This document shows positions 44,452-46,232 of a stretch of DNA of 64,000 nucleotides, in pieces. The stretch is from positions 21,057 to 85,056 of the forward strand of contig JAGOUZ010000001.1 of assembly GCA_018060985.1 (NCBI GenBank), read 5' to 3'. Source of the stretch: Minisyncoccota bacterium (GTDB taxonomy: Bacteria; Patescibacteriota; Minisyncoccia; Phycocordibacterales; SBAW01). The position numbers and the translations under genes were made by a program. The notes beneath the pieces were generated by a model that was given only the letters and a program-made list of their open reading frames with translations, ran no database searches and was not told the DNA's origin. Position 1 is the first letter of the stretch. Every line of letters starts with the position of its first letter.

Positions 44452-45798
44452 TTAGTGACCACTATGGTCAACGCTCGCGTTGCCGTAAAAGATATCAGGT
44501 CGCTCCTCTCCTTCAACCTCAATAATCGCCCAAGCTCCTTTGTTCATGCGAGCGAGGGCGTGGTCAACTAGCACGATGTTGCCGGGCACCTCTGGGGTAA
44601 ATTCAACAATAGTTGCGCCACCTGGTAAAACCGCAGTTGTTTGGATATTTTCATGCGGCTCAGCATCGATACCACCCTCAGCATAAACTGTGTCCCATAT
44701 CTCGCCGATCGGGTGGAATGACGAAATGAGATTCACACCACCATTTCCAACGAAAATGCGCACCCTCTCACCTGTTTTTACTTTCATGCGTGGGTGTCCG
44801 TCGGTCTCGATACGTCCGTTGAAGGTCACATAATTTGGCAAACCATCAAGGAGTGCGTTGCCGTCGAAAATAGTAAGTCCCTTCTTTCCAATCTCACCTT
44901 TGGTATAAAGCTCACCTTGCACAAGATAAAACTCTTTATCGACGGGGGGCAACCCTTCTTTTGGTTCGACTAGGATAAGTCCGTACTGTCCGTGTGAGTT
45001 ATGTGTACTCACGTTTGGTGTCGCACAGTGATAAATGTAAAGGCCCGGTTGAAGCGCCTTCCATGTAAACACTTTTGTCTCACCGGGCTCGACGCGCGAA
45101 AGCGTTGAACCACCCCCCGGGCCAGTTACTGCGTGAAGGTCAATGTTGTGTGCATGGAGGCTCGACGGATGATTGGTAATTGTCATTTCGACCATGTCTC
45201 CTTCGAGCACGCGCAGCATCGGTCCGGGCACTTGCTTATTGAACGTCCAGTAGTTGAAATAGATACCTTTGGCCACTTCGGCGATCACCTCCTGTGCTGT
45301 AAGAGATATCCTAACGGTTTCGTTTGTGTCTCGGCTGATGGGCGGCGGAACATTGTTAGGGTCGGCACCTATGTCCTCGACATACTCAAAGTTTTTAAAG
45401 TTCTTTATGAACACAAGTACGTTCTTGAATGGGAGGTCGGGAAGCGCTCCACCTGGGTGATAGACATGCATGAACGCGGGCATTGCAAAATGTGGCGAGT
45501 AGGTTTTATCTGCCCACATGTATAAAAGTCCTGCAGCCATAATTACGCCAAATGTGACCGCAAGAATCTTTGAATGCACACGATATAGAAGGCGGAGTAT
45601 GAAGAAGGAGAGCGCCAAGACCACAATCGTAATGGCCCCACCCTGCATCACCGAGTAATGAATGAATGGATAGAAAGTGATCAGATTTCCAAAGCCAAAG
45701 TATGAAAACATGCTAATGAAGCCCAGGAGCACAAGGATACCGATACCAATGCCGATCTTAGTCATTGGACGACTCATCTTTCTGTATTTGAACTCCAT
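44452..45798 (-). CDS. nirK: copper-containing nitrite reductase (NirK)-family two-cupredoxin-domain protein with about 130-aa N-terminal multi-TM extension
   Basis: [14 protein letters not shown] (T1/T2 Cu His motif), [17 protein letters not shown] (Cys/His T1 ligands; Gln at the usual axial Met position by manual alignment), 448 aa. Confidence 0.7.
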   Translation of the reverse strand: [448 protein letters not shown]

Positions 45799-45809
45799 AG
45801 TATCAATCG

Positions 45810-46172
45810 CTAATATGGGATTTTACAATCCTCAAAGCAATGTGCGCTGCGGTTAAGTGTATAAATGCGCTCCCTACCACGATCTTCGCTTTTCACCGCA
45901 TCAACTGATCGAAGGACGTTGAGGTGGTGTGTCACGGTCGGCTGCTTCAGTTTTACTTGCTCGGTAAGTTCTCCAACCGTCATGCCTTCCTTAGCTTTAC
46001 CAAGCATGCACACAAGGTTGTAGCGACTCCTGTCGCCGACTACCTTAAAGCAATCGGGGCACAGTTCCTCTTCACCGCTCGTAACCCATTCGGGGCGCGG
46101 ATATGTTTTTTCTTCTTTACCATGAACCGGTTTCGTGTTGCGACGCTTTATCCCCAACGATTTCTTATTCAT
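45810..46172 (-). CDS. ArsR/SmtB-family metalloregulator
   Basis: HTH region YNLVCMLGKAKEGMTVGELTEQVKLKQPTVTHHLNVL; Cys pairs CPDC and CFEDC; directly upstream of nirK. Confidence 0.7.
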   Translation of the reverse strand: MNKKSLGIKRRNTKPVHGKEEKTYPRPEWVTSGEEELCPDCFKVVGDRSRYNLVCMLGKAKEGMTVGELTEQVKLKQPTVTHHLNVLRSVDAVKSEDRGRERIYTLNRSAHCFEDCKIPY

Positions 46173-46232
46173 AGATGAACATCTATATGTATTATGTATA
46201 GACACTTATCAATATAACAATACCAAACCCCT

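Follow-up and report, generated by a model that had tools for sequence, protein, structure and literature searches.

Copper nitrite reductases (NirKs) are the best-studied model of how electron and proton transfer are coupled between copper sites, and the potential of their type-1 copper is set mainly by the axial ligand. When the axial Met of AcNiR was exchanged for Gln (M150Q), a change ascribed to Kataoka et al. in 2003, the type-1 potential reportedly went down by ~127 mV and electron transfer from pseudoazurin is said to have become slower. In the literature that we searched, a natural Gln ligand is described for a single NirK, TsNirK, whose type-1 site, His75-Cys115-His125-Gln130, was presented as "never observed before in NirKs" (PMC6400189). 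Genes for NirK have been known from bacteria of the candidate phyla radiation (CPR; Patescibacteria) since 2017; published trees place the CPR sequences in a CPR-specific clade (PMC5581439), and a 2025 survey lists >140 Patescibacterial metagenome-assembled genomes with nirK (PMC12931201). This work examines the nirK gene and its surroundings in a 64,000-nucleotide (nt) stretch of DNA from a Minisyncoccota bacterium (GenBank assembly GCA_018060985.1, contig JAGOUZ010000001.1, positions 21,057 to 85,056; referred to here as the window). The encoded protein aligns with well-characterized NirKs throughout its core and has Gln at the position of the axial Met. We consider it likely that the window holds a bicistronic arsR-nirK operon that encodes a membrane-anchored, Gln-type NirK, is repressed by its own ArsR-family protein, and occupies the cargo slot of an integrative element.

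A clade II NirK with Gln at the axial position

The nirK open reading frame (ORF; window positions 44452 to 45798, minus strand) encodes 448 residues from its first ATG, comprising three predicted transmembrane (TM) helices within residues 1 to 98, a linker (residues 99 to 142), and a two-cupredoxin core (residues 143 to 440). An NCBI protein named [quoted passage not shown] (P0001; 441 residues) is identical to this ORF from Met8 onward. The initial annotation had assigned the gene to the NirK family but asked whether it might encode a two-domain multicopper oxidase (MCO), and comparison with profiles of both groups sides with NirK. The NirK equivalog model TIGR02376 scores 315.4 bits (cutoff, 296.3), whereas laccase, CueO, and CopA models score 16 to 47 bits against cutoffs of 470 to 615. 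The best sequence matches in the Protein Data Bank (PDB) are PhNiR (2zoo; 4e-99) and AniA (1kbv, 8e-95; 5tb7, ~1e-94), followed by the RpNiR and Br2D cores. An AlphaFold model of the protein (predicted local distance difference test [pLDDT], 82.8) was superposed by Foldseek on 6the with a template-modeling score of 0.96 and a root mean square deviation of 1.5 Å, and the top fold matches were all NirKs.

That the protein is instead a laccase-like two-domain MCO has, in our judgment, a probability close to nil. Such an identity could draw on the Pfam result, which consists of the generic Cu-oxidase_3 and Cu-oxidase_2 domains (i.e., two cupredoxin domains), and on the HxH motif (H215-A-H217) ahead of the sensing loop. 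However, the protein has HCA where MCOs have HCH, and the four HxH motifs of the trinuclear cluster are absent from its sequence, and on these grounds we reject an MCO assignment. The NirK-specific residues D220, H362, I364, and H413 are all in place, in keeping with the profile scores and with the best sequence and fold matches. The chain ends 8 residues past the core, without an additional C-terminal domain. Residues 359 to 363 read SSFHP, in agreement with the SSFH[VIP] motif that surrounds the catalytic His of NirK clade II (Decleyre et al. 2016; PMC4770552), and the nearest structures are AniA, PhNiR, and RpNiR. Judged by its sequence, the ORF is a genuine copper nitrite reductase of clade II (AniA-like).

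Residues of the copper sites were mapped by counting along a pairwise alignment with AniA, which is ~50% identical and ungapped through the ligand loop. In this alignment, H222, H257, and H413 correspond to the type-2 ligands H99, H134, and H289 of AniA, and D220, H362, and I364 correspond to its catalytic and gating residues D97, H240, and I242; the type-2 copper site, the catalytic Asp/His, and the gating Ile are therefore intact. At the type-1 site, H217, C258, and H266 correspond to H94, C135, and H143, and the canonical His-Cys-His-Met set is broken by Gln271, which stands at the position of Met148. Apart from this last position, the mapped residues (H217, D220, H222, H257, C258, H266, H362, I364, and H413) are invariant in 75 aligned homologues. 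The type-1 ligand loop (H257 to Q271; positions 44986 to 45030, minus strand), read from the translation and from ungapped alignment with AniA and PhNiR, has the spacing C-x7-H-x4-Q. The C-x8-H spacing given in the initial annotation is thus off by one residue, while the replacement of the axial Met by Gln that it had proposed is borne out, and because the loop aligns without gaps, no shift of the alignment can bring back an axial Met. H215 (of the HxH motif) and H269 (of H-G-Q) were considered as extra ligands specific to Gln-type proteins and rejected, as both are family-wide and present in Met-type relatives.

Gln271 is predicted to coordinate the type-1 copper, giving a stellacyanin-like His2-Cys-Gln site in place of His2-Cys-Met, because Gln at the same position, five residues past the second His, is a crystallographically proven ligand in TsNirK (PMC6400189). 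It is very improbable, in our view, that the change from Met to Gln has disabled or repurposed the type-1 site (through binding of another metal or because electrons are routed around it) and that the clade consists of degenerate NirKs. Engineered axial mutants of AfNiR and AcNiR are often inactive or bind other metals, and the M150E mutant (PDB entry 1ntd) contains zinc. Nevertheless, Gln and the other three ligands are strictly kept across sequences that are 58 to 100% identical and come from at least 45 species-level genomes, and TsNirK has Gln and yet is an active NirK (PMC6400189).

Gln-type NirKs form a large clade within a membrane-anchored family

The motif H-N-[SA]-H-G-Q occurs in each of the 120 protein clusters closest to the window NirK (60 to 100% identity). 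Among the best 150 representatives (at 50% identity) of all NirK-like proteins, the axial residue is Met in 128, Gln in 5, Leu in 3, and Ala in 1. A scan of species-representative genomes with the window NirK gave at least 577 matching stretches, and analysis of loci was carried out on the best 81 of these, in which the axial residue is Gln in 45, Met in 34, and Leu in 2. In a neighbor-joining tree of the core domain, the window-type Gln NirKs are monophyletic (13 of 13 sampled) and nested in a Patescibacteria-dominated NirK family, and Gln is also found on separate branches in a Woesearchaeota sequence (L066) and in P0136. Branches of the family that keep Met include Kaiser-, Yonath-, Zambryski-, and Doudnabacteria, UBA2163, and Anaerolineales, with a loop that reads HCAxPNxAxHMAHGMYG. 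A TM hairpin with the motifs Y..[VI]Q..G and R..HS[RK] is common to the whole membrane-anchored family. The Gln, the anchor, and the accompanying ArsR are not peculiarities of a mobile copy: they characterize a large clade (120 of 120 closest homologues; 45 of 81 genome loci) or extend to the family at large.

A Met-type member of this family (WP_247363672.1; 49% identical over residues 40 to 437 of the window NirK) is encoded on plasmid pWTT2411 of Methylophaga pinxianii (contig L096, positions 4911 to 6221). This organism is a cultured gammaproteobacterium and, as such, a possible experimental entry point. On the plasmid, nirK has duplicated cadR/cation-transporter genes and a transposase as its neighbors.

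An earlier published claim that the NirKs of CPR bacteria possess all canonical ligands fits the Met-type branch (Kaiserbacteria and Harrisonbacteria) only and not the Gln clade. Taken singly, the occurrence of NirK in CPR bacteria, an axial Gln, and the fusion of NirK to a membrane domain all have precedents. A literature search outside subscription journals returned no description, for CPR bacteria, of the Gln ligand or of the membrane hairpin, linker motif (FAMPxFMH), ArsR, or integrative element described below. What appears to be undescribed is the combination, i.e., a large clade of Gln-type, membrane-anchored NirKs with a linker of its own, a Cys-rich ArsR and operator, and carriage by a tRNA-Asn element.

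A three-helix anchor and a clade-specific linker

The region ahead of the structured core extends from residue 1 to residue ~142. Its hydropathy profile has three peaks (residues 15 to 33, 53 to 71, and 78 to 96), and AlphaFold models three helices (residues 10 to 34, 36 to 73, and 77 to 98). These TM helices (residues 10 to 98; positions 45505 to 45771, minus strand) carry a polar motif, Y48..Q52 / R..HSK, that is conserved in a family alignment including the Methylophaga protein. Of the ~130-residue extension with about four TM helices that had been annotated here, the multi-pass membrane anchor stands and the number of helices is corrected to three. As modeled, the extension is a polytopic anchor followed by a linker and not a cleavable signal peptide. 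Positive charges lie ahead of helix 1 and between helices 2 and 3, a placement that, by the positive-inside rule, would put the N terminus inside the membrane and the catalytic domain outside it.

Directly after the anchor, residues 100 to 117 (positions 45448 to 45501, minus strand) form a His/Met-rich juxtamembrane motif, found by translation and alignment, that is specific to the Gln clade. Its consensus is Y-x-P-H-F-A-M-P-x-F-M-H-x-x-x-P-G, in which A105 and P107 are invariant and F104, M106, M110, and P115 are conserved at 90% or more. The FAMPxFMH core of this motif is present in 39 of the 45 Gln-type loci versus none of the 36 Met/Leu-type loci; the 6 Gln-type loci without it comprise 3 truncated sequences and 3 from the separate Gln lineages. 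We speculate that this clade-specific His/Met linker may capture copper or dock a partner protein. Two observations weigh against assigning it such a role. Residues 98 to 122 are modeled by AlphaFold at pLDDT <50 and have no confident position. In addition, the co-occurrence of Gln and FAMPxFMH is that of one monophyletic clade and represents a single evolutionary event, by which functional coupling is not proven.

A Cys-rich ArsR-family regulator and its predicted operator

The first gene of the arsR-nirK operon (positions 45810 to 46172, minus strand) encodes a predicted ArsR-family winged-helix repressor of 120 residues and is separated from nirK by 11 nt. The maximal ORF runs from 45810 to 46205 (minus strand), but the true start is almost certainly the ATG at 46172, because all homologues begin with MNKK. 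Membership in the ArsR/SmtB winged-helix family is indicated by matches to PF01022 (2.5e-8), PF12840, and NF033788 (62.6; cutoff, 55), and the nearest known relatives are CzrA (6e-8), ArsR, SmtB, and BigR. The subfamily comprises ~794 protein clusters. Five Cys and one His are conserved (120-residue numbering): C38 and C41 of a CPxC motif, C55, and H111, C112, and C116 of an HCxxxC motif. Of 120 homologues, 117 have CxxC where alpha1 begins and 118 have the C-terminal HCxxxC; nearly all have a Cys within the second predicted helix (residues 48 to 59).

An ArsR with Cys pairs upstream of nirK (C49/C52 and C123/C127 in the numbering of the long ORF) was already noted in the initial annotation; the gene is real, and both its pairing with nirK (ArsR is present at 14 nirK loci) and its Cys residues are conserved. 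Its designation as a metalloregulator is sound as far as the family is concerned, the profile score being above the cutoff, but does not extend to the metal sites. The AlphaFold model contains alpha1 to alpha4 and a beta-hairpin and lacks the alpha5 helix; the classical sites (alpha5 D/H/H/E, alpha3 CxC, and alpha3N) are absent, and the alignment with CzrA stops before the alpha5 site.

A divergent control region of 60 bp separates arsR from nrdB, the ATG of which is at 46233. Read on the minus strand, the control elements (46182 to 46239) comprise a -35 box, TGGACA (46234 to 46239), the box TATATTGATAA (46206 to 46216), and an inverted repeat (46182 to 46202). A promoter scan paired the -35 box with an extended -10 box, TATATT (46211 to 46216, within TATATTGATAA), that agrees at 10 of 12 positions and has a TG extension. 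The inverted repeat, TCTATA-N9-TATAGA, occurs once in the window, and the order TATATTGATAA, TCTATA-N9-TATAGA, ATCTATG upstream of arsR is conserved in 17 of 17 loci. This layout is classic for a repressor sited just downstream of the -10 box, and the protein that binds there would most likely be ArsR, with the -10 box on one side of it and the arsR start codon on the other. Bound ArsR would repress arsR-nirK and probably also the divergent nrdBA-PNPOx-FNR genes. Release would then depend on a thiol-reactive signal, for which a metal (Cu(I) or Zn), an oxidant, nitric oxide (NO), and possibly an iron-sulfur (Fe-S) cluster are candidates.

Gene contexts and proposed role of the anchored NirK

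The genes that diverge from arsR-nirK (positions 46233 to 50291, plus strand) were assigned by Pfam as nrdB with an N-terminal ATP-cone, nrdA, a PNPOx-like flavoprotein gene, and an FNR-like NAD-binding oxidoreductase gene. The ribonucleotide reductase pair (46233 to 49204) has an unusual architecture, in that the ATP-cone is on the small subunit NrdB (430 residues; PF03477 at residues 11 to 102) and NrdA (556 residues) has no cone. When the genes surrounding nirK were clustered for the window and 84 other loci, ArsR (14 loci), class II ribonucleotide reductase (13), class I NrdA/NrdB (5), the PNPOx-like flavoprotein (11), an FAD-linked oxidase (11), and the FNR-like protein (7) emerged as recurrent neighbors.

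Four further contexts were retrieved via ArsR alone and are hence free of bias toward NirK. In L092, a class II ribonucleotide reductase gene is divergent from arsR, which is followed by nirK; in L095, FNR and PNPOx genes are divergent from arsR, which is followed by nirK and then by an FAD-oxidase gene; and in L094, a class II ribonucleotide reductase gene is divergent from arsR, which is followed by an AHSA1-like gene. In L093, a Paceibacterota contig (positions 6001 to 7100), arsR and the same operator stand ahead of an alternative oxidase gene (PF01786), beside a heme-copper oxidase (cox) operon. The gene after arsR is thus nirK in two of the four, an alternative oxidase gene in one, and an AHSA1-like gene in one. 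From these contexts, we conclude that this ArsR heads terminal electron-sink operons that lie back-to-back with ribonucleotide reductase genes.

For the NirK itself, we propose that the three TM helices and a flexible linker of ~45 residues tether the catalytic domain to the cytoplasmic membrane, on its outer face. By analogy with other NirKs, a trimer would reduce nitrite to NO at the type-2 copper (H222, H257, and H413', with D220, H362, and I364), and electrons would enter via the type-1 copper with His217, Cys258, His266, and Gln271. Gln271 would lower the type-1 potential by ~100 mV and thereby suit a lower-potential, probably membrane-associated donor; we favor a low-potential donor because it fits organisms without a bc1 complex and high-potential carriers.

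A different emphasis is possible, although we give it somewhat less than an even chance: NirK may be a stress or electron-sink device that removes nitrite, produces NO, or disposes of reductant, under the control of a redox- or NO-sensing ArsR that would also regulate ribonucleotide reductase. The alternative oxidase context of L093 points in this direction, as do the many loci in which ArsR and its operator are divergent from a ribonucleotide reductase gene of class I or class II. No nor, nos, or respiratory-chain genes were found in the 64-kb window, and a respiratory role in CPR bacteria has already been doubted (PMC5581439). However, the chemistry would be the same as that proposed above, so that a sink function does not exclude the anchored, ArsR-repressed NirK that we prefer, and the view afforded by the window is limited to 64 kb of the genome.

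The proposal of an anchored NirK with a low-potential donor is weakened by the donor search: scanning of the window with Pfam and with a crude C..H..M motif found no cupredoxin, cytochrome c, or ferric-reductase-like candidate. Several flavin and heme proteins are encoded near nirK in related loci. The FAD-linked oxidase (FAD_binding_4 plus FAD-oxidase_C; D-lactate/glycolate-oxidase-like) is usually immediately beside nirK in the 11 loci that have it (e.g., L012, positions 11074 to 12720) and is in one operon with nirK in L095 (7853 to 9508); its homologue in the window lies at 2157 to 3824, 40 kb from nirK, and is a possible electron source. In a Nomurabacteria locus (L001, 9596 to 11790), nirK is followed by genes for a ferric-reductase-like TM FAD/NAD oxidoreductase and an SH3/cytochrome b5 protein, a pair that could plausibly pass electrons from NAD(P)H through the membrane. 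Adjoining the ribonucleotide reductase/FNR genes and nirK, L005 encodes a 694-residue fusion protein (16389 to 18470) in which a multi-pass membrane domain at the N terminus is joined to cytochrome b5 (PF00173) and to a cytochrome d1 beta-propeller (PF02239; 3.6e-71). The donor may accordingly be sought among ferric-reductase-like NAD(P)H oxidoreductases with cytochrome b5, as in L001, FAD-linked oxidases, and cytochrome b5 fusions.

A broader proposal, tentative and on balance unlikely, is that Gln-type NirKs are a distinct functional class (stellacyanin-like, low-potential type-1 copper; His/Met arm that binds copper or docks a partner; and TM hairpin) wired to a noncanonical membrane or flavoprotein donor. 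The idea of such a donor stems from the FAD-linked oxidase, ferric-reductase-like, and cytochrome b5 genes that flank nirK in relatives. Under the same proposal, a Patescibacteria-wide regulon would exist in which the alpha5-less, Cys-rich ArsR, possibly sensing through an Fe-S cluster or thiols, responds to NO or redox stress by controlling ribonucleotide reductase together with a terminal electron sink, be it NirK or alternative oxidase.

The Gln clade is two-domain and otherwise canonical, and together with its Met-type sisters it constitutes a natural Met/Gln comparison on the same scaffold. The membrane tether, the missing donor, and the ArsR operator that links nirK or alternative oxidase genes with ribonucleotide reductase genes are now testable, and the questions of anchor, donor, and operator bear on the retention of nitrite reductase in organisms without a respiratory chain.

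Probable carriage by a tRNA-Asn integrative element

The initial annotation had placed nirK inside a putative integrated element, and this placement is upheld by an integration module on one side of the gene block and a tRNA-derived repeat on the other. On the left, an intact tRNA-Asn(GTT) gene (positions 40373 to 40447, plus strand; ARAGORN; Rfam, 73 bits) is the target on the side of the left attachment site (attL). A large serine recombinase (integrase) of 527 residues (40433 to 42016, minus strand) follows, with the Pfam domains Resolvase, Recombinase, and Zn_ribbon_recom and a match to the phrog_95 integrase family (1e-65). Its homologues are 87 to 97% identical in other Patescibacterial contigs; those in L088, L089, and L091 are 87 to 89% identical and have the same overlap with tRNA-Asn, which is therefore the target in four independent contigs, including the window. 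In all four, the recombinase ORF ends within the tRNA gene (40433 to 40447 in the window), such that the tRNA 3' end encodes the recombinase C terminus.

The rest of the backbone (42019 to 44305, minus strand), delimited by blastn, consists of p237, iteron-like repeats (42918 to 43060), rep-like p145, a SpoVG-like gene with a Pfam match to SpoVG, and p64. The repeats, which lie between p237 and p145, are four tandem copies of a 39-nt family with TTTACCCAAG-type units and suggest a replication origin. A match to phrog_270 in the backbone is weak. An inverted repeat at 43233 and 44451 was judged coincidental, as both of its arms are coding. By blastn, the backbone is continuous with that of L089 over 40368 to 44305 (81%), while the match to L005 stops at 44304 and that to L088 at 44171. 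The backbones of L088, L089, and L091 have the order p66, SpoVG-like gene, p142, variable gene, p235, and recombinase.

Beyond this backbone, the cargo differs. L088 carries type I restriction-modification genes and Fic beyond p66, and L089 carries type II restriction-modification genes and genes for an HNH nuclease, an HATPase, and an HTH_17 protein; the corresponding slot in the window holds nirK, arsR, nrdB, nrdA, PNPOx, and FNR. The distal end is marked by a small conserved ORF, X (51 residues; 50390 to 50545, minus strand; 85% nt identity to L005 and 92% to L085), homologues of which accompany the recombinase backbone in both of those contigs. About 135 bp past ORF X is a remnant resembling a right attachment site (attR), GCGAGCCCTACCCGCGGAGCA (50680 to 50700, plus strand), which repeats the 3' end of tRNA-Asn directly with 18 of 21 bases; the 21-mer had no match in 100 shuffles, versus two observed matches. 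L005 has a homologous tRNA remnant beside its own ORF X. A three-domain recombinase, a conserved backbone, variable cargo, and a defined tRNA-Asn site are thus all found, as expected of an integrative element. Going by the DNA alone, the nirK-arsR-nrd block is within the putative boundaries of a tRNA-Asn serine-recombinase element of ~10.3 kb. nirK is probably cargo of this element, because the same element elsewhere carries restriction-modification cargo, and would thereby be mobile.

Other features of the right-hand gap were also recorded. A second tRNA-Asn-like fragment, GTAGGGCTCGAACC (50600 to 50620, reverse complement), matches the T-arm with 13 of 14 bases and lies ~60 nt before the attR-like repeat. 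Rfam searches of the window returned two tRNAs only and no known RNA in the gap at 50.3 to 50.7 kb, which holds ORF X and the tRNA-like fragments.

Several observations tell against carriage as cargo and would suit a different, somewhat unlikely history in which the genes for NirK, ArsR, and ribonucleotide reductase are resident on the chromosome, only the 3.9-kb backbone (40447 to 44305) is mobile, and ORF X and the tRNA remnant are older debris. Long direct repeats are not normally left behind by large serine recombinases; repeats of 19 to 21 bp are not their usual product, which makes the attachment-site reading an unusual one. Between the window and L005, the cargo is 72 to 75% identical at the nt level (NirK, 84% over 409 aligned residues; NrdA, 85% at the protein level), close to the chromosomal flanks (~72% nt; flanking DUF817, 72% nt and 76% at the protein level), unlike the backbone and ORF X (82 to 92% nt). 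Because the cargo diverges about as much as the flanks, a recent foreign origin, for which the initial annotation had suggested a test, is disfavored. The GC content of the cargo (0.48 to 0.50) equals that of the surrounding window, and a composition scan of the window did not mark the cargo as foreign and found skew at the 40- to 44-kb backbone only. The arsR-nirK-ribonucleotide reductase cluster also occurs in many genomes without a nearby recombinase. The recombinase of L085, although 97% identical, has 33 additional residues and no tRNA at its end, and a 3'-half tRNA-Asn remnant lies 5.4 kb away; a simple integration model did not fit this contig.

Chromosomal residence of the cluster is, in turn, less easily reconciled with its repeated position. 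In both the window and L005, the backbone borders the cluster on one side and ORF X with its remnant on the other, although the internal gene order differs: L005 has the same genes between ORF X and the backbone, but rearranged, with nirK and arsR convergent. In L088 and L089, restriction-modification cargo fills the slot next to p64; the backbone and ORF X are only 1.6 kb apart in L085; and L009 and L022 also have nirK upstream of the p64-to-recombinase module in the same orientation. We therefore retain carriage of nirK by the element as the probable reading of the window. As an explanation of the patchy distribution of nirK, which it had also been invoked for, the element falls short: a serine recombinase is present within 10 kb of nirK in 9 of 85 loci, most related loci having none, and CPR sequences form a clade of their own (PMC5581439). 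The tRNA-Asn element is one vehicle, i.e., one route by which a nirK module may move on an element whose other cargo is restriction-modification systems, and not a general explanation of nirK distribution.

Elsewhere in the window, positions 29960 to 35674 (minus strand) contain an ORF of 1904 residues, and positions 54514 to 54984 encode a SET-domain protein (PF00856; 3e-24).

Comparison with known systems

The closest characterized enzymes are AniA of Neisseria gonorrhoeae (1kbv and 5tb7) and PhNiR of Pseudoalteromonas haloplanktis (2zoo), with 50 to 52% core identity and an almost gapless alignment. They share with the window NirK an identical type-2 site, the catalytic Asp/His/Ile, the SSFH[VP] motif, and the ligand loop length (C-x7-H-x4-X). 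AniA differs in its axial Met148, which corresponds to Gln271. It is also membrane-tethered, by a lipid anchor; its lipoprotein signal contrasts with the three TM helices and conserved linker of the window NirK. PhNiR has a C-terminal cytochrome c domain that the window NirK lacks.

TsNirK of Thermus scotoductus SA-01 (6hbe; PMC6400189) shares the His2-Cys-Gln type-1 site with Gln five residues past the second His. In other respects it is distant (E = 6e-34), with three domains (an extra C-terminal cupredoxin), Ser for the catalytic Asp, Val for Ile, a C-x9-H loop, and no membrane anchor. The window NirK, which has the catalytic Asp220 and no such C-terminal domain, has only the Gln in common with it, and given this distance and the different architecture, the Gln arose independently in the two lineages.

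Among anchored enzymes, the Met-type NirKs of Patescibacteria (including Kaiserbacteria; PMC5581439), Anaerolineales, and Methylophaga have the same TM hairpin and core (45 to 55% identity), and many are encoded behind the same ArsR; they differ by the axial Met and by YP..x..YGP where the Gln clade has FAMPxFMH. Actinobacterial NirKs (e.g., that of Cutibacterium acnes) likewise have an N-terminal membrane domain fused to NirK but, as described, are set apart by architecture, with a membrane domain of ~400 residues, an extra cupredoxin, and ~900 residues in total (PMC4770552). The window ArsR, finally, resembles CzrA, SmtB, ArsR, and BigR in its winged-helix core and in the palindromic operator expected of an autoregulated repressor. 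Unlike these proteins, it has neither the alpha5 helix nor the alpha5, alpha3, and alpha3N ligands and instead carries CPxC where alpha1 begins, one Cys within the second predicted helix, and the C-terminal HCxxxC.

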